IMG/VR virus record: IMGVR_UViG_2695420514_000009
DNA from: a virus
Lineage: Duplodnaviria > Heunggongvirae > Uroviricota > Caudoviricetes
Reading direction: 5' to 3' (one strand)
Length of the DNA: 14,161 nucleotides
A program made the translations under genes and the position numbers. The notes below the pieces were generated by a model. The model saw only the letters and a list, made by a program, of their open reading frames with translations. It searched no databases and had not been told where the DNA came from. This document shows positions 3,344-14,101 of the stretch, piece after piece; the first letter of the stretch is position 1; each line of letters begins with the position of its first letter.

Positions 3344-3533
3344 ACTGCAGGCGCTGCGTCAGGCGCGCCTTGATTTATTAACCGGTAAACGGGTGGTGTC
3401 TGTCCAGAAAGACGGTCGCAGAATTGAATATACGGCGGCTTCTCTGGATGAGCTTAACCGGGCGATCAATGATGCGGAGTCGGTACTGGGGACAACCCGC
3501 CGTCGCCGTCGTCCGCTGGGAGTGAGGTTATGA
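3327..3533 (+). CDS. W: head-tail joining/head completion protein (gpW-like)
   Basis: 68 aa, same length as lambda gpW, with a conserved LLTGKRVVSVQKDGRRIEYTAAS core. It overlaps the terminase 3' end and its stop overlaps the portal start (ATGA at 3530-3533). Confidence 0.9.
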   Translation: MVTVAELQALRQARLDLLTGKRVVSVQKDGRRIEYTAASLDELNRAINDAESVLGTTRRRRRPLGVRL

Positions 3534-5122
3534 AACGAACGCCTGTCCTGATTGATGTGAACGGCGTTCCGCTTCGGGAGAGCCTCAGCTACAACGGGGG
3601 CGGCGCAGGATTTGGCGGGCAAATGGCGGAGTGGTTGCCACCGGCGCAGAGTGCCGATGCAGCTCTGTTGCCCGCGTTGCGTCTGGGGAATGCCCGTGCA
3701 GATGATCTGGTACGCAATAACGGGATAGCGGCCAATGCGGTGGCACTGCATAAGGATCACATTGTCGGGCATATGTTTCTTATCAGCTACCGTCCGAACT
3801 GGCGCTGGCTGGGGATGCGGGAGACCGCGGCAAAAAGTTTTGTCGATGAGGTGGAGGCGGCCTGGTCGGAATACGCAGAAGGGATGTCTGGCGAGATCGA
3901 CGTGGAAGGGAAACGCACGTTTACGGAATTTATCCGTGAAGGTGTGGGCGTTCATGCGTTTAACGGCGAAATCTTTGTGCAGCCGGTCTGGGATGCGGAG
4001 ACCACGCAGTTATTCCGTACGCGTTTTAAAGCCGTGAGTCCGAAACGGGTGGACACGCCAGGACACGGTATGGGGAACCGCTTTCTGCGGGCCGGTGTGG
4101 AGGTCGATCGATATGGCCGTGCCGTTGCGTACCATATCTGTGAGGATGATTTTCCGTTCTCTGGTAGTGGACGATGGGAACGGATCCCGCGTGAACTTCC
4201 CACCGGGCGTCCGGCCATGCTGCATATTTTCGAGCCGGTGGAGGACGGGCAGACCCGTGGGGCTAATCAGTTTTACAGCGTCATGGAGCGGCTGAAGATG
4301 CTGGATTCCCTGCAGGCAACACAGCTTCAGTCAGCCATAGTGAAGGCAATGTATGCAGCGACAATTGAAAGTGAACTTGATACCGAAAAGGCCTTTGAAT
4401 ATATCGCCGGTGCACCGCAGGGGCAGAAGGATAATCCGCTTATTAATATTCTGGAGAAGTTCTCCAGTTGGTATGACACGAATAACGTGACGCTGGGCGG
4501 CGTCAAAATTCCGCACCTTTTCCCCGGGGATGATCTGAAACTGCAGACTGTGCAGGATTCAGACAATGGATTTTCGGCACTTGAACAGGCGCTGCTGCGG
4601 TATATCGCCGCCGGTCTTGGCGTTTCCTACGAACAGTTGTCCCGTGATTACTCGAAGGTCAGTTATTCAAGTGCCCGTGCATCCGCCAATGAGTCGTGGC
4701 GCTATTTTATGGGGCGGCGAAAATTTATTGCGGCCCGGCTGGCCACGCAGATGTTTTCCTGCTGGCTGGAAGAGGCTCTTCTTCGGGGGATTATTCGTCC
4801 GCCACGGGCGCGTTTTGATTTTTATCAGGCGCGATCAGCCTGGTCACGGGCAGAGTGGATTGGTGCCGGAAGAATGGCCATTGACGGGCTCAAGGAGGTT
4901 CAGGAATCAGTGATGCGCATTGAGGCCGGACTGAGCACGTATGAGAAAGAGCTGGCGTTGATGGGCGAGGATTATCAGGACATTTTCCGCCAGCAGGTCA
5001 GGGAATCTGCAGAGCGGCAAAAAGCCGGACTCTCACGTCCGGTGTGGATAGCGCAGGCGTATCAGCAGCAGATAGCGGAGAGTCGCAGGCCGGAAGAGGA
5101 GACAACACCACGTGAGACGTAA
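3530..5122 (+). CDS. B: portal protein (gpB-like)
   Basis: 530 aa with RBS GGAGTGAGG. Long conserved blocks match lambda gpB, for example ARADDLVRNNG, FEPVEDGQTRGAN, LQSAIVKAMYAATIESELDT and LLRYIAAGLGVSYEQLSR. Confidence 0.93.
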   Translation: MKRTPVLIDVNGVPLRESLSYNGGGAGFGGQMAEWLPPAQSADAALLPALRLGNARADDLVRNNGIAANAVALHKDHIVGHMFLISYRPNWRWLGMRETAAKSFVDEVEAAWSEYAEGMSGEIDVEGKRTFTEFIREGVGVHAFNGEIFVQPVWDAETTQLFRTRFKAVSPKRVDTPGHGMGNRFLRAGVEVDRYGRAVAYHICEDDFPFSGSGRWERIPRELPTGRPAMLHIFEPVEDGQTRGANQFYSVMERLKMLDSLQATQLQSAIVKAMYAATIESELDTEKAFEYIAGAPQGQKDNPLINILEKFSSWYDTNNVTLGGVKIPHLFPGDDLKLQTVQDSDNGFSALEQALLRYIAAGLGVSYEQLSRDYSKVSYSSARASANESWRYFMGRRKFIAARLATQMFSCWLEEALLRGIIRPPRARFDFYQARSAWSRAEWIGAGRMAIDGLKEVQESVMRIEAGLSTYEKELALMGEDYQDIFRQQVRESAERQKAGLSRPVWIAQAYQQQIAESRRPEEETTPRET

Positions 5123-6617
5123 TCTTTCACACATTATTGCCGCAGCATTCAATGAACCGCTGCTTCTGGAGCCCGCCTATGCGCGGGTTTTCTTTTGCGC
5201 GCTCGGGCGCGAGATGGGGGCAGCAAGTCTTTCGGTACCACAGCAGCAGGTACAGCTTGATGCTTCCGGAATGCTGGCTGAAACGGACGAGTACATGGCC
5301 GGAGGTAAACGACCGGCCCGTGTTTACAGGGTGGTGAACGGTATTGCTGTACTGCCGGTGACCGGCACGCTGGTGCACCGGCTGGGGGGTATGCGGCCAT
5401 TTTCCGGAATGACAGGCTATGACGGTATTGTCGCCTGTCTTCAGCAGGCAATGGCGGATAGCCAGGTGCGGGGCGTACTGCTGGACATTGACAGTCCGGG
5501 CGGGCAGGCCGCCGGCGCGTTTGACTGCGCTGACATGATTTACCGCCTCCGTCAGCAGAAACCGGTCTGGGCACTGTGCAATGACACGGCCTGTTCTGCA
5601 GCCATGCTGCTGGCGTCGGCCTGCTCCCGACGGCTGGTTACCCAGACATCCCGTATCGGCTCCATTGGCGTGATGATGAGCCATGTCAGCTATGCCGGTC
5701 ATCTGGCGCAGGCCGGTGTGGATATCACGCTGATTTACTCAGGGACGCACAAGGTGGATGGCAATCAGTTTGAAGCGTTGCCGGCAGAGGTTCGCCAGGA
5801 TATGCAGCAGCGGATTGATGCGGCGCGCCGGATGTTTGCTGAAAAAGTGGCGATGTATACCGGTCTGTCTGTTGATGCCGTCACGGGAACAGAGGCCGCC
5901 GTTTTTGAAGGTCAGTCCGGCATTGAGGCCGGGCTGGCGGATGAATTAGTCAATGCGTCGGATGCCATCAGTGTGATGGCCACGGCGCTGAACAGTAATG
6001 TCAGAGGAGGCACTATGCCGCAATTAACTGCAACGGAAGCCGCCGCGCAGGAGAACCAGCGAGTGATGGGGATCCTGACATGCCAGGAAGCGAAAGGACG
6101 TGAACAGCTTGCCACGATGCTGGCAGGACAACAGGGCATGAGCGTTGAACAGGCCCGGGCGATTCTGGCCGCGGCGGCACCACAGCAGCCGGTGGCATCC
6201 GCGCAGAGTGAAGCCGATCGCATTATGGCGTGTGAAGAAGCGAACGGTCGTGAACAACTGGCGGCAACGCTGGCGGCGATGCCGGAGATGACGGTGGAAA
6301 AAGCCCGCCCGATCCTGGCTGCTTCACCGCAGGCGGATGCCGGACCCTCACTCCGTGATCAGATCATGGCACTGGATGAGGCAAAAGGGGCTGAGGCGCA
6401 GGCAGAACAGCTGGCTGCCTGCCCGGGAATGACTGTGGAGAGCGCCCGGGCTGTGCTGGCTGCGGGATCAGGTAAGGCAGAACCGGTCTCTGCATCCACA
6501 ACCGCCATGTTTGAACGCATCATGGCGAACCATTCACCGGCAGCGGTACAGGGTGGCGTGCCACAGACGTCAGCAGACGGTGATGCGGACGTGAAAATGC
6601 TCATGGCCATGCCATGA
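5112..6617 (+). CDS. C: prohead protease (gpC-like, S49/ClpP-type serine peptidase) with C-terminal scaffold domain
   Basis: 501 aa with GTG start at 5112, overlapping the portal 3' end. The N-terminal two-thirds match lambda gpC (AFNEPLLLEPAYARVFFCAL, NGIAVLPVTGTLV, SIGVMMSHVSYAGHLAQAGVDITLIYSGTHKVDGN). The C-terminal third is Ala/Gln/Glu-rich and internally repeated. Confidence 0.9.
   Translation: MRRNLSHIIAAAFNEPLLLEPAYARVFFCALGREMGAASLSVPQQQVQLDASGMLAETDEYMAGGKRPARVYRVVNGIAVLPVTGTLVHRLGGMRPFSGMTGYDGIVACLQQAMADSQVRGVLLDIDSPGGQAAGAFDCADMIYRLRQQKPVWALCNDTACSAAMLLASACSRRLVTQTSRIGSIGVMMSHVSYAGHLAQAGVDITLIYSGTHKVDGNQFEALPAEVRQDMQQRIDAARRMFAEKVAMYTGLSVDAVTGTEAAVFEGQSGIEAGLADELVNASDAISVMATALNSNVRGGTMPQLTATEAAAQENQRVMGILTCQEAKGREQLATMLAGQQGMSVEQARAILAAAAPQQPVASAQSEADRIMACEEANGREQLAATLAAMPEMTVEKARPILAASPQADAGPSLRDQIMALDEAKGAEAQAEQLAACPGMTVESARAVLAAGSGKAEPVSASTTAMFERIMANHSPAAVQGGVPQTSADGDADVKMLMAMP
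6015..6617 (+). CDS. nu3: scaffolding protein (gpNu3-like), nested in-frame within the 3' third of the protease gene
   Basis: Internal ATG at 6015 in the C frame, preceded by GAGGAGG (6005-6011). It yields 200 aa, the size expected from lambda Nu3, which is likewise translated in-frame within C. It contains three tandem ~46-53 aa repeats. Confidence 0.6.
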   Translation: MPQLTATEAAAQENQRVMGILTCQEAKGREQLATMLAGQQGMSVEQARAILAAAAPQQPVASAQSEADRIMACEEANGREQLAATLAAMPEMTVEKARPILAASPQADAGPSLRDQIMALDEAKGAEAQAEQLAACPGMTVESARAVLAAGSGKAEPVSASTTAMFERIMANHSPAAVQGGVPQTSADGDADVKMLMAMP

Positions 6618-6653: not shown

Positions 6654-7001
6654 ATGGTGACGAAAACCATCACTGAACAGCGTGCGGAAGTACGTATTTT
6701 TGCCGGTAATGATCCGGCTCATACCGCCACAGGCAGCAGCGGGATTTCCTCGCCAACACCGGCACTGACGCCCCTGATGCTGGATGAAGCCACCGGGAAA
6801 CTGGTGGTCTGGGACGGACAGAAAGCCGGTAGTGCGGTTGGCATACTGGTACTGCCGCTTGAAGGCACAGAGACGGCGCTGACGTATTACAAGTCGGGAA
6901 CCTTTGCGACGGAGGCAATCCACTGGCCTGAAAGTGTGGATGAACACAAAAAGGCCAACGCTTTTGCCGGCAGTGCCCTGAGTCACGCGGCGCTGCCGTA
7001 A
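6654..7001 (+). CDS. D: head decoration protein (gpD-like)
   Basis: 115 aa with RBS AGGAGG at 6639-6644. Matches lambda gpD: DPAHTAT, PLMLD, KLVVWDG, AVGIL, YYKSGTF and AFAG. Confidence 0.92.
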   Translation: MVTKTITEQRAEVRIFAGNDPAHTATGSSGISSPTPALTPLMLDEATGKLVVWDGQKAGSAVGILVLPLEGTETALTYYKSGTFATEAIHWPESVDEHKKANAFAGSALSHAALP

Positions 7002-7058: not shown

Positions 7059-8087
7059 ATGGGATTGTTTACGACCCGCCAGTTACTCGGTTATACCGAA
7101 CAAAAAGTTAAATTTCGTGCGCTGTTTCTGGAGCTGTTTTTCCGCCGTACAGTGAATTTCCATACCGAAGAGGTGATGCTGGACAAAATTACCGGAAAAA
7201 CGCCGGTGGCGGCCTATGTCTCCCCGGTTGTTGAAGGAAAAGTGCTGCGTCATCGTGGTGGTGAAACCCGCGTGTTGCGTCCGGGCTACGTCAAGCCGAA
7301 ACACGAATTTAATTACCAGCAGGCGGTTGAGCGCCTTCCTGGTGAAGATCCATCTCAACTGAATGATCCGGCTTACCGCCGTCTGCGTATCATTACCGAT
7401 AACCTCAAACAGGAAGAGCACGCGATTGTCCAGGTGGAAGAAATGCAGGCGGTAAATGCTGTGTTGTATGGCAAATACACTATGGAAGGAGACCAGTTCG
7501 AGAAAATTGAGGTCGATTTTGGCAGGTCGACGAAGAATAACATCACTCAGGGTAGTGGTAAGGAGTGGTCAAAACAGGATCGTGACACGTTCGATCCTAC
7601 ACATGATATTGACCTCTACTGCGACCAGGCCAGCGGTCTTGTGAATATTGCCATTATGGACGGTACCGTCTGGCGTCTGCTGAATGGCTTTAAATTGTTC
7701 CGCGAAAAACTGGATACCCGTCGCGGCTCTAATTCGCAACTCGAAACAGCGGTGAAAGACCTGGGCGCGGTGGTGTCCTTCAAAGGGTATTACGGCGATC
7801 TGGCCATTGTGGTGGCAAAAACGTCTTATGTGGCAGAGGACGGTACCGAAAAACGTTATCTGCCTGAGGGCTCGCTGGTCCTGGGGAATACGGCAGCAGA
7901 GGGCATTCGTTGCTATGGTGCCATTCAGGATGCGCAGGCGTTGTCCGAAGGTGTGGTGGCCTCTTCCCGTTATCCGAAACACTGGCTGACGGTAGGGGAT
8001 CCCGCCCGTGAATTTACCATGACGCAGTCCGCGCCGCTGATGGTGTTGCCGGACCCGGATGAGTTTGTGGTGGTACAGGTGAAATAA
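7059..8087 (+). CDS. E: major capsid protein (gpE-like)
   Basis: 342 aa, against 341 in lambda gpE. Extensive identity, for example GYVKPKHE, VEEMQAVNAVLYGKYTMEGD, KLDTRRGSNSQLETAVKDLG and GDPAREFTMTQSAPLMVLPDPDEF. Confidence 0.95.
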   Translation: MGLFTTRQLLGYTEQKVKFRALFLELFFRRTVNFHTEEVMLDKITGKTPVAAYVSPVVEGKVLRHRGGETRVLRPGYVKPKHEFNYQQAVERLPGEDPSQLNDPAYRRLRIITDNLKQEEHAIVQVEEMQAVNAVLYGKYTMEGDQFEKIEVDFGRSTKNNITQGSGKEWSKQDRDTFDPTHDIDLYCDQASGLVNIAIMDGTVWRLLNGFKLFREKLDTRRGSNSQLETAVKDLGAVVSFKGYYGDLAIVVAKTSYVAEDGTEKRYLPEGSLVLGNTAAEGIRCYGAIQDAQALSEGVVASSRYPKHWLTVGDPAREFTMTQSAPLMVLPDPDEFVVVQVK

Positions 8088-11046: not shown

Positions 11047-11486
11047 ATTTTGCCCTCAGACTGGCGCGAGAGATGGGGCGACCCGACTGGCGCGCCATGC
11101 TTGCCGGGATGACATCCACCGAATATGCCGACTGGCGACATTTTTACCGCACGCATTATTTTCAGGATACCCAACTGGATATGCATTTTTCCGGGCTGAT
11201 GTACGCTGTACTCAGCCTGTTTTTTTGCGATCCGGATATGCATCCCTCTGATTTCAGTCTGCTTGTCCCCCGGCATGAGGAAGAGCAGGTGGAGAGGCTG
11301 GATGAGGACAAAATGCTGATGCAGAAAGCGGCAGGACTTGCCGGAGGCGTCCGGTTCGGTGGGGACGGAGGGGGCGATATTTTATCGTCTGCGGATGTGG
11401 CGGATGTCATGGTGGATGATGCTGCATTAATGATGGCTTCAGCGGGGATTCCAGGAGGTGTGAGATATGTCCCAGCCGGTTGGTGA
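10615..11486 (+). CDS. GT: tail assembly chaperone G-T fusion produced by programmed -1 ribosomal frameshift (G frame 10615-11027, then T frame from 11027/11028 to 11486)
   Basis: The slippery site GGGAAAG at 11022-11028 is the same heptamer used by lambda G/T. The -1 frame after the slip is open to 11486 and encodes gpT-like sequence (MGRPDWRAMLAGMTSTEYADW, HFSGLMYAVLSLFF, VLMQKAAGLAGGVRFG) with no independent RBS. Confidence 0.85.
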
Positions 11487-14101
11487 TCTTATTATTGACC
11501 TGAGTCTGGATGCGGTCCGTTTCGATGAGCAGATGAGCCGGGTAAGGCGTCATTTTTCAGGACTGGATACTGACGCCAGAAAAACCGCCACTGCTGTTGA
11601 ACAGGGGCTGAGCCGTCAGGCGCTGGCTGCGCAAAAAGCCGGGATTTCCGTCGGACAGTATAAAGCGGCCATGCGCACCCTGCCCGCACAGTTTACGGAT
11701 ATCGCCACGCAGCTTGCCGGTGGTCAGAATCCCTGGCTGATCCTGCTGCAACAGGGCGGTCAGGTGAAGGACTCCTTCGGCGGGATGATCCCCATGCTCA
11801 GGGGGCTTGCCGGTGCGATCACCCTGCCGATGGTCGGGGTCACCTCGCTGGCGGTGGCGACAGGTGCGCTGGCGTACGCCTGGTACCAGGGGGATTCCAC
11901 GCTTTCAGCGTTTAATAAAACCCTGGTTCTTTCCGGTAATCAGTCCGGACTGACTGCCGATCGCATGTTGACGCTCTCCAGAGTCGGACAGGCCGCAGGG
12001 CTGACGTTTAACCAGGCGAGTGAGTCACTGGCAGCCCTGGTGAATGCCGGTGTGCGTGGTGGTGAACAGTTTGATGCGATCAACCAGAGTGTTGCGCGTT
12101 TTGCGTCTGCATCCGGTGTGGAGGTGGATAAAGTCGCTGAAGCCTTCGGGAAGCTGACCACTGATCCGACGTCGGGACTGATGGCGATGGCGCGCCAGTT
12201 CCGTAACGTGACGGCAGAGCAGATTGCGTATGTTGCACAGCTGCAGCGTTCCGGTGATGAGGCCGGAGCCTTACAGGCGGCGAACGATATCGCCACGAAA
12301 GGCTTTGATGAGCAGACCCGCCGTCTGAAAGAAAACATGGGGACGCTGGAGACCTGGGCGGATAAAACAGGGAAGGCGTTCAAATCGATGTGGGATGCCA
12401 TTCTGGATATCGGTCGTCCGGAATCCTCAGCGGATATGCTCGCCAGTGCGCAGAAGGCATTCGATGAGGCGGATAAAAAATGGCAGTGGTACCAGAGCCG
12501 GAGCCAGCGTCGGGGAAAGACCGCCTCTTTCCGTGCCAACCTTCAGGGCGCATGGGATGACCGTGAAAATGCCCGTCTGGGGCTGGCGGCGGCAACACTG
12601 CAGTCGGATATGGAAAAAGCCGGTGAACTGGCGGCAAGGGATAAGGCTGAGCGTGACGCGTCACAGCTGAAATATACCGAAGAGGCACAGAAGGCGTATG
12701 AACGGATGCTGTCGCCGCTGGAGAAATATACCACCCGTCAGGAAGAACTGAATAAGGCCCTGAAAGACGGAAAAATCCTGCAGGCGGATTACAACACGCT
12801 GATGGCGTCGGCAAAAAAGGATTATGAGTCGACGCTGAAAAAGCCGTCCGGTGTGAAGGTTTCAGTCGGTGAGCGCCAGGAAGACCGGGCACATGCAGCT
12901 ATGCTGGCGCTTGAAACCGAGCTCAGGACGCTGGAAAAACACAGCGGTGTGAATGAGAAAATCAGCCAGCAGCGCCGGGATTTATGGAAAGCGGAAAATC
13001 AGTATGCGGTCCTTAAAGAGGCTGCCACGAAACGGCAGTTATCTGAGCAGGAAAAATCCCTGCTGGCCCATGAGAAAGAGACGCTGGAGTACAAACGCCA
13101 GCTGGCTGAGCTGGGCGACAAGGTGGAACACCAGAAACGGCTGAATGAGCTGGCGCAGCAGGCGGCGCGGTTTGAACAGCAGCAAAGCGCGAAGCAGGCG
13201 GCAATCAGCGCAAAAGCCCGCAGTCTCACCGACCGTCAGGCGCAGCGCGAGTCGGAAGAGCAGCGGCTTCGTGACGTGTACGGTGATAATCCGGCTGTGC
13301 TGGCGAAGGCCACATCTGCACTGAAGAACACCTGGTCTGCGGAGGAGCAGCTTCGTGGAAGCTGGATGGCTGGCCTGAAGTCCGGCTGGAGCGAGTGGAA
13401 AGAGAGTGCCACGGACAGTATGTCGCAGGTTAAAAGTGCTGCCACGCAGACCTTTGATGGTATTGCGCAGAATGTGGCGGCGATGCTGACCGGCAGTGAG
13501 CAGAACTGGCGCAGCTTCACCCGTTCCGTGCTGTCCATGATGACAGAAATTCTGCTAAAGCAGGCAATGGTGGGGATTGTCGGGAGTATCGGCAGCAATG
13601 ATGACAGAAATTCTGCTTAAGCAGGCAATGGTGGGGATTGTCGGGAGTATCGGCAGCGCCATTGGCGGAGTTGTTGGTGGCGGCGCATCAGCGTCAGGCG
13701 GTACAGCCATTCAGGCTGCGGCGGCGAACTTCCATTTCGCGACCGGGGGATTTACGGGAACCGGTGGCAAATATGAGCCAGCGGGGATTGTCCACCGCGG
13801 GGAGTTTGTCTTCACGAAGGAGGCAACCAGCCGGATTGGTGTCAGCAACCTGTACCGCCTGATGCGGGGCTATGCGGAAGGTGGTTATGTGGGCGGTGCC
13901 GGAAGTCCGGCGCAGAGGCGGCGGGCGGAAGGCATTAATTTTAATCAGAACAATCACGTGGTGATTCAGAACGACGGCACGAACGGGCAGATAGGTCCGG
14001 CTGCTCTGAAGGCGGTGTATGACATGGCCCGCAAGGGTGCCCGTGATGAAATTCAGACACAGATGCGTGATGGTGGCCTGTTCTCCGGAGGTGGACGATG
14101 A
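11467..14101 (+). pseudogene. H: tail tape measure protein gene (gpH-like), frame disrupted by a 61-bp tandem duplication; present as a 717-aa N-terminal ORF (11467-13620) plus a C-terminal ORF in the +1 frame (13598-14101)
   Basis: RBS AGGAGG before ATG 11467. The N-terminal part is coiled-coil-rich with a hydrophobic segment, typical of tape measure proteins. The C-terminal ORF encodes a Gly-rich conserved gpH C-terminus (GGFTGTGGKYEPAGIVHRGEFVFTKEATSRIG). Removing one repeat copy restores a single ~857-codon ORF, against ~853 aa for lambda gpH. Confidence 0.8.
13536..13657 (+). repeat. 61-bp direct tandem duplication (2 copies, 59/61 identical) inside the tape measure gene
   Basis: Copy 1 is 13536-13596 and copy 2 is 13597-13657. 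They differ at the first base (C vs A) and at 13557 vs 13618 (A vs T). The second difference creates the in-frame TAA (13618-13620) and a CTTAAG hexamer (13616-13621). Confidence 0.9.

Follow-up and report, generated by a model that had tools for sequence, protein, structure and literature searches.

A phage 21-type version of the lambda C/Nu3 protease and scaffold gene pair carrying three tandem copies of a predicted three-helix unit

Herpesviruses encode a nested protease-scaffold pair, UL26/UL26.5, whose two products have a common C-terminus. In bacteriophage lambda, where the protease C and the scaffold Nu3 are arranged in this nested manner, Nu3 is needed for portal incorporation and is probably degraded by C, and two-hybrid and curated data list C, the capsid protein E and Nu3 itself as interaction partners of Nu3 (PMC3224144). 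That the internal product of lambda is made, and that the scaffold is removed from mature heads, is taken here from the titles of papers and from curated tables. The scaffolds of P22 and 80alpha bind the N-arm of the capsid protein through helix-turn-helix segments (PMC11922011). For phage 21, a GenBank record of the 1990s (M81255.1, 'Bacteriophage 21 head gene operon') places gene 5 over a whole open reading frame (ORF), nests a gene 6 with a putative ribosome-binding site (RBS) within it, and marks three repeat_region features in gene 6 as 'Tri1 box', 'Tri box' and 'Tri3 box' ('function unknown; putative'). Here, we describe the homologous locus in a 14,161-nucleotide stretch of viral DNA (IMG/VR record IMGVR_UViG_2695420514_000009), called the window throughout; coordinates are window positions, on the plus strand unless stated.

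The 501-codon ORF at 5112-6617 is, with high probability, a phage 21-type version of the lambda C/Nu3 arrangement, in which a prohead protease (gp5) and a nested scaffold (gp6) share a region of three modules with a protein-binding role. Gene 6 of M81255.1 starts exactly at window position 6015, and its Tri boxes map to 6082-6185, 6222-6332 and 6363-6476, overlapping three units that we found independently. The complete phage 21 genome of 2021 (OL657228.1) names the pair 'capsid protease/scaffolding protein' and 'scaffolding protein' and annotates the RBS. The gene pair and its triplication, as phage 21 genes 5 and 6 with their Tri boxes, are thus already known. Because the feature table of M81255.1, on which the evidence for prior knowledge of the triplication rests, carries the nested gene, the RBS and the repeats, everything that a first-pass annotation had described in the window was already public.

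The DNA of the ORF is 98.4-98.6% identical over its full length to the same gene in ev017, PhiR57_1, 21, 4A7 and others. Its N-terminal part holds an S49 protease domain (PF01343, E=1e-35, residues 146-293, 123 bits against a cutoff of 24.9), and in a PDB sequence search the SppA structures 3rst and 4kwb match gp5 residues 77-290 with E of about 1e-15. Within the C-terminal part the first-pass annotation had reported three tandem repeats at the protein level, and these proved robust. Local alignment of the units in pairs gave scores of 87-101, against shuffle means of 25-27 with a standard deviation of about 5 (z = 11.8-15.6), and none of the 2000 composition-preserving shuffles made for each pair reached the observed score. 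The units, which start 53 and 47 residues apart, are 54-63% identical in amino acids and, in a codon-aware alignment, 56-68% identical in nucleotides, with about half of the identical residues written in different codons and 16 columns invariant among all three. A unit profile recovers each of them at 64-75 bits. The repeat is visible only in protein, because Tandem Repeats Finder (TRF) detected no tandem repeat in the DNA of the region and an exact-seed repeat finder returned just a 12-nucleotide trace at a spacing of 150-153; the divergence at the nucleotide level that had been claimed for the units is therefore real. A fourth unit after unit 3 ('FERIMANH...') was considered and rejected, with z of about 0 in the shuffle test. 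The profiles phrog_8399 and phrog_8940 (scaffolding or capsid assembly protein) each match gp6 three times, and direct alignment, the unit hidden Markov model (HMM) and these PHROGs matches all identify the C-terminal region as homologous to lambda Nu3. The unit also weakly matches positions 894-932 of phrog_21, a 1362-column 'portal protein' profile, a hint that this family includes some portal-protease-scaffold fusions or mis-merged gene calls.

The ATG at 6015 lies in the reading frame of the ORF and predicts a 200-residue product ending at the same stop, as the first-pass annotation had stated. A GAGGAGG Shine-Dalgarno (SD) sequence ends 4 nucleotides before it and is as strong as had been claimed: its pairing with the 3' end of 16S rRNA, at -12.0 kcal/mol, is the minimum of the whole gene, equalled at 0.8% of positions, and no other in-frame ATG in the gene has an SD pairing below -8.9 kcal/mol. 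GGAGG followed by ATG 4-5 nucleotides on occurs at the homologous codon in lambda, 2B8, N15, phi80, Gifsy-1 and phage 21 (codon 309 of C, nucleotide 5342, in lambda and 2B8; codon 311 in N15 and phi80; codon 302 in Gifsy-1 and phage 21), and the Gly-Gly is written GGA GG in all six phages though the flanking linker sequence differs. The internal Met is invariant in an alignment of 20 sequences; phiARM81ld keeps the ATG with a weak SD. N15 annotates a 137-residue gene 6 at the homologous start, 'assigned by similarity with lambda'. Comparison with these starts and with the phage 21 annotation thus supports a Nu3-like nested gene.

RefSeq begins lambda nu3 elsewhere, at codon 239 of C, for a product of 201 residues (lambda locus position 2333, against about 2543 for Met-309; window equivalents 5826 and 6015), and the equivalent codon is Ile in the window and in phage 21. 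Comparison favours Met-309 of gpC, with a product of 131 residues, as the conserved lambda nu3 start, and the RefSeq coding sequence probably has about 70 codons too many at its 5' end. Because Met-309 rather than codon 239 is the homologous lambda start, the match in length between the 200 residues here and the 201 of RefSeq nu3 is coincidental. N-terminal sequencing is said to have placed lambda Nu3 at Met-309, as a protein of 131 residues and about 13 kDa, and the 131 positions of the 'head scaffolding protein' profile phrog_8399 are consistent with that length. The phage 21 genome record also marks two minus-strand matches to a 'CII binding site' pattern (ttgynnnnnnttgy) inside gene 6, at window 6020-6033 and 6254-6267 (phage 21 locus 2409-2422 and 2643-2656), which appear to be pattern-only annotations.

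Table 1. Features of the protease/scaffold locus and its neighbours in the window.
Feature	Position	Strand	Basis or remark
Portal gene	3530-5122		upstream neighbour of the 5112-6617 ORF
Gene 5 homologue (lambda C type), 501-residue prohead protease with C-terminal scaffold region, GTG start	5112..6617	+	phage 21 gene 5 identity
S49 (SppA-like) serine protease domain	5340..5990	+	Pfam and SppA structures
Putative SD GAGGAGG of the internal start, within Arg-Gly-Gly codons AGA GGA GGC	6004..6010	+	putative RBS in phage 21 records
Predicted nested in-frame gene 6 homologue (Nu3-type scaffolding protein), 200 residues, frame and stop common with gene 5	6015..6617	+	phage 21 gene 6 coordinates
Unit 1 (RVMGILTCQEAKGREQLATMLAGQQGMSVEQARAILAA)	6060..6173, gp6 residues 16-53	+	orthologue of the lambda single unit; overlaps 'Tri1 box'
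Unit 2 (RIMACEEANGREQLAATLAAMPEMTVEKARPILAA)	6219..6323, gp6 residues 69-103	+	overlaps 'Tri box'
Unit 3 (QIMALDEAKGAEAQAEQLAACPGMTVESARAVLAA)	6360..6464, gp6 residues 116-150	+	HMM score 64 bits; overlaps 'Tri3 box'
C-terminal tail: low-confidence linker, conserved F-[ED]-x-[FI]-M helix (gp6 residues 166-170, nucleotides 6510-6524), terminal ..MLMAMP	6465..6614	+	
Decoration gene	6654-7001		downstream of the 5112-6617 ORF
Major capsid gene	7059-8087		downstream of the decoration gene

The number of units differs among related phages. When the C-type proteins of lambda (NC_001416), 2B8, N15, phi80, Aeromonas phage phiARM81ld and Gifsy-1 were scanned with the unit HMM, a single unit was found in each of lambda (69 bits; gpC residues 359-401), 2B8, N15, phi80 and phiARM81ld, and three in Gifsy-1, as in phage 21 and the window. 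The first-pass annotation had taken lambda to have one such unit and had called the present locus an expansion of it; both statements hold, and lambda does not share the three units. With gp6 as the query, a word-indexed search yielded 91 proteins, most of them E. coli and Salmonella fragments labelled 'S49 family peptidase, partial'. The units carry signatures of their position, 'QENQRVMGIL.C' in the first, 'SEADRI[ML]A' in the second and 'SL.D.I[ML]ALDEAKG' in the third. In a neighbour-joining tree of the unit cores, which at 36 residues is noisy, the first units of all phages fall together with the lambda and N15 single units, unit 2 of the window groups with those of Gifsy-1 and the Salmonella protein P0028, and unit 3 of Gifsy-1 groups with those of P0028 and P0093. 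Because the units pair by position across E. coli, Salmonella and Providencia proteins, the claim that the expansion is not recent is supported: the triplication predates the split of the versions found in these three genera.

A 26-unit profile searched against 1.84 billion representative proteins found the module in 1257 clusters at E <= 1e-3. The scores of repeated units add up in such a search, so multi-unit proteins rank first, and even so the best 150 of the 1257 clusters comprise 136 with one unit, 11 with two (several of them fragments of triples) and 3 with three. The multi-unit state is rare by cluster count, at about 1% of the 1257, and common by prevalence. Four units are present in P0031, an E. 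coli cluster of 48 sequences, whose three downstream units (2-4) are nearly identical to each other, a recent expansion; when the phage collection was searched by tblastn with the four-unit protein, no isolate carried it, and the variant was seen only in E. coli assemblies. Two units are present in P0016, P0020 and P0021, close relatives of the window protein, in a form consistent with deletion or unit fusion, and one of the three shows a clean fusion of units 1 and 2 ('MSVEQARPILAASPQ'). These two- and four-unit variants could be real recombinants or assembly artefacts. Independent duplications are found in distant lineages (P0145, P0130, P0194 and P0123), where the two units of a protein pair with each other in the tree; P0145 is a 469-residue 'ClpP class serine protease' from a JGI metagenome. 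The 270-residue predicted protein P0045 joins an unrelated, methyltransferase-like N-terminal segment ('...DPPYGSMKG...') to a three-unit scaffold region, and is a probable chimera of gene calling or assembly.

The unit falls within no Pfam or NCBIfam family, and in a search of PDB chains nothing matched it by sequence, SppA alone being matched, at the protease domain. AlphaFold2 was applied to gp6 with a 20-sequence alignment and returned three similar helix triplets, with a predicted local distance difference test score (pLDDT) of 72-81 and low-confidence linkers between them; the predicted TM score (pTM) of 0.28 indicates independent beads. Helices were also placed in the tail, at residues 160-172 and 190-196, with low pLDDT. 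A single unit, modelled with a 26-sequence alignment, reached a pLDDT of 91.8 and a pTM of 0.70, with helices at residues 2-11, 19-26 and 33-42, and the two inter-helix turns coincide with, or adjoin, the invariant segments 'EAKGRE' and 'PGMT'. Each unit is accordingly predicted with confidence to be a three-helix mini-domain of about 40 residues, joined to the next by a flexible linker. A Foldseek search with the whole gp6 model gave no match below E=1, as expected for a beads-on-a-string model with so low a pTM.

What is established here is how the gene is built, that its repeats are real, homologous and old, that the start signal is conserved, and how the units are predicted to fold; translation from 6015, the binding partner of the units and any effect of their copy number are what we infer. 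We propose that a single reading frame would yield two proteins, a full-length S49 prohead protease of 501 residues and an abundant 200-residue scaffold made by internal initiation at 6015 and identical to the C-terminal 200 residues of the protease. Their shared region would consist of three independently folding three-helix mini-domains, flexible linkers rich in Pro, Ala and Gln, and a conserved C-terminal tail, units 2 and 3 having arisen on the downstream side of the ancestral unit through old tandem duplications. Each unit may serve as a protein-protein binding module that touches the capsid shell on its inner side, touches other scaffold chains, or does both. The common modules would then tether both proteins in the procapsid, such that the low-copy protease would be co-packaged with the scaffold, and the tandem units would supply several binding sites per chain, with copy number setting the valency. 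Three units per chain would raise valency where lambda relies on a longer disordered N-terminal segment.

A broader, speculative extension, which we consider possible but doubtful, is that evolution can tune the valency of the scaffold and protease of the lambda family through module number (1 to 4). It is suggested by the distribution of the unit, since lambda-like phages have one, phage 21, Gifsy-1 and the Providencia prophages three, and one E. coli lineage four, while close relatives of the window protein are down to two and, in distant lineages (such as P0145, P0130 and P0194), the unit has been duplicated independently. If this is true, and a trade-off between copy number and linker length or oligomerisation tunes procapsid assembly or protease loading, the natural variants would be a ready-made valency test series; in practice the series of one, two, three and four units could serve for testing scaffold valency in procapsid assembly.

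Three points weigh against our proposal. Translation from 6015 is something that we infer from comparative data. A folded unit sits uneasily with the title of Medina et al. 2011, which reportedly calls purified lambda gpNu3 'intrinsically disordered'; the unit may be marginally stable alone, or may fold only on binding. Finally, by analogy with the C-terminus of the herpesvirus scaffold, capsid binding could reside in the conserved C-terminal tail and not in the units. This last point leads to an alternative with the same architecture, in which the units are self-association or portal-recruitment modules and the tail binds the major capsid protein, an arrangement that we regard as a reasonable though minority possibility. 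The extreme C-terminus of the herpesvirus scaffold is said to bind the capsid protein, and phages from lambda to Gifsy-1 keep the tail motif F-[ED]-x-F-M ... LLMSMP, with residues F166 and M170 of the tail nearly invariant (alignment A3) and 'LDRLM ... DLLNTPV' as the lambda counterpart. Nu3-Nu3 and Nu3-portal relations are also recorded besides Nu3-E (PMC3224144). The units, however, are better conserved than any other part of the shared region, and in the 1257 protein clusters they often occur with divergent tails.

The remaining alternatives dispute the nested gene, the nature of the binding or the repeats themselves. If internal initiation did not occur, full-length gp5 alone would act as both protease and scaffold, as is reported for P2 gpO, and the GGAGG would be an accident of Gly-Gly coding; the Prokaryotic Genome Annotation Pipeline (PGAP) does label the gene in E. 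coli genomes simply as 'S49 family peptidase'. This is very unlikely given that the strongest SD of the gene stands ahead of ATG 6015, that GGA GG and the ATG recur at the same codon in six phages within an otherwise variable linker, and that the internal Met is unchanged in all 20 aligned homologues. We find it highly improbable, too, that the units are motifs like the helix-hairpin-helix (HhH), with a tail that contacts DNA and not protein. What suggests it is a weak Pfam match on unit 3 (E=0.018), a resemblance of 'LAxxPGMTxxxAxxIL' to the HhH pattern 'hxxhPGIGxxxAxxI', and the presence of RuvA chains among weak fold matches. The Pfam match is confined to this one unit, and at 15.4 bits it falls below the gathering cutoff of 24 for PF00633, so that the units do not qualify as members of that family. 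A chance effect of low-complexity sequence rich in Ala, Gln and Glu might be entertained for an Ala-rich region in which DNA-level tools see almost nothing, but it has practically no likelihood: it is refuted by the composition-preserving shuffles, which never reach the observed scores (z 12-16), and by the unit profile, which recovers all three units at 64-75 bits and the lambda unit as well, with 16 invariant columns.

A proposal of a phage 21-type C/Nu3 arrangement with protein-binding modules has little consequence for genome annotation as such, the pair and its triplication having been deposited decades ago, and the feature is an ordinary one, known and very common. The 603-nucleotide gene is present at >=90% identity in 1870 of 5426 complete E. 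coli genomes, about one third, in up to five copies per genome. What this analysis adds is modest: a census of copy number (1-4, mostly 1), positional orthology that establishes the expansion as old, comparative support for a start of the Met-309 type, and a confident three-helix model of the unit. There are also practical points. PGAP omits the nested scaffold gene, which is never called in the E. coli genomes, where the label is always just 'S49 family peptidase'; RefSeq starts lambda nu3 at a codon that is not conserved; and the unit of about 40 residues is without a Pfam family though it defines more than 1200 protein clusters.

The window as a whole, judged from its ORF map and the co-linear phage 21 annotation, comes from the left arm of a lambdoid phage or prophage and spans its morphogenesis region. 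A cos site is followed by the small and large terminase genes, a W-like gene, the portal gene, the 501-codon ORF, and the decoration, major capsid, head completion and tail genes, which matches the lambdoid order of terminase, W, portal, C/Nu3, D, E, FI, FII and tail and places the ORF between the portal and the decoration and major capsid genes of the head operon (Table 1). A search of the whole window with Rfam gave no matches. In the cos region (700-900) a cosN-like gggcggcgacct stands at about 739-750, and ccggacatg repeats at about 785-890 appear similar to the terminase-binding R sites of phage 21 cosB; phage 21-like phage records leave the window uncovered from 1 to about 690. The tape-measure gene at 11467-14101, a homologue of lambda H and of phage 21 H (853 residues), is spread over two reading frames, with H residues 1-706 aligning in one (up to about 13596) and residues 677-853 in the second (starting at about 13568). 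The pattern suggests a frameshift near 13570-13600, whose cause might be a pseudogene, an error in sequencing or some other; 'tape-measure protein H (x2)' appears in the record of a related phage.

Comparison with other scaffolds separates analogy from homology. The P22 and 80alpha scaffolds resemble gp6 in having a small helical capsid-binding element on a flexible scaffold, a likeness that is functional only: the units have no detectable sequence or fold relationship to the P22-type coat-binding domain, and the P22, 80alpha and herpesvirus scaffolds differ from gp6 in having one binding element per chain and coiled-coil oligomerisation. Likewise, no sequence or fold relationship was detectable between UL26/UL26.5 and the window. 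Staphylococcal protein A, with its tandem three-helix-bundle binding domains, is an analogy as well, at 12-19% identity, with a generic fold and unrelated biology. The lambda C/Nu3 locus (C at 4418-5737 of NC_001416), on the other hand, has the same S49 protease, in-frame nested scaffold with common C-terminus, GGAGG-ATG signal, tail motif and gene order, and a homologous unit that is 57-66% identical in amino acids to each unit of the window. It differs in having one unit, which aligns with unit 1, in a 131-residue rather than 200-residue product from the homologous Met, and in a spacer of about 50 residues between that Met and the unit, against 14 in the window (about 36 extra). Gifsy-1 STM2605 and the 'S49 family peptidases' of Salmonella, Providencia and E. 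coli prophages are closer, with three orthologous units in the same order, the tail, and the internal Met and SD of the window, although amino-acid identity is 56-65% and some carry an extra terminal 'PGTxAAxxxxK' extension. Closest of all are genes 5 and 6 of phage 21, at 98.5% nucleotide identity over the full length of gene 5 and 97.5% amino-acid identity, with the nested coding sequence, RBS, Tri boxes and neighbours all alike. Five amino acids of gp6 differ, and the window is probably a prophage or a related isolate in which the tail region is partly different, with ev017 and PhiR57_1 as its best matches.

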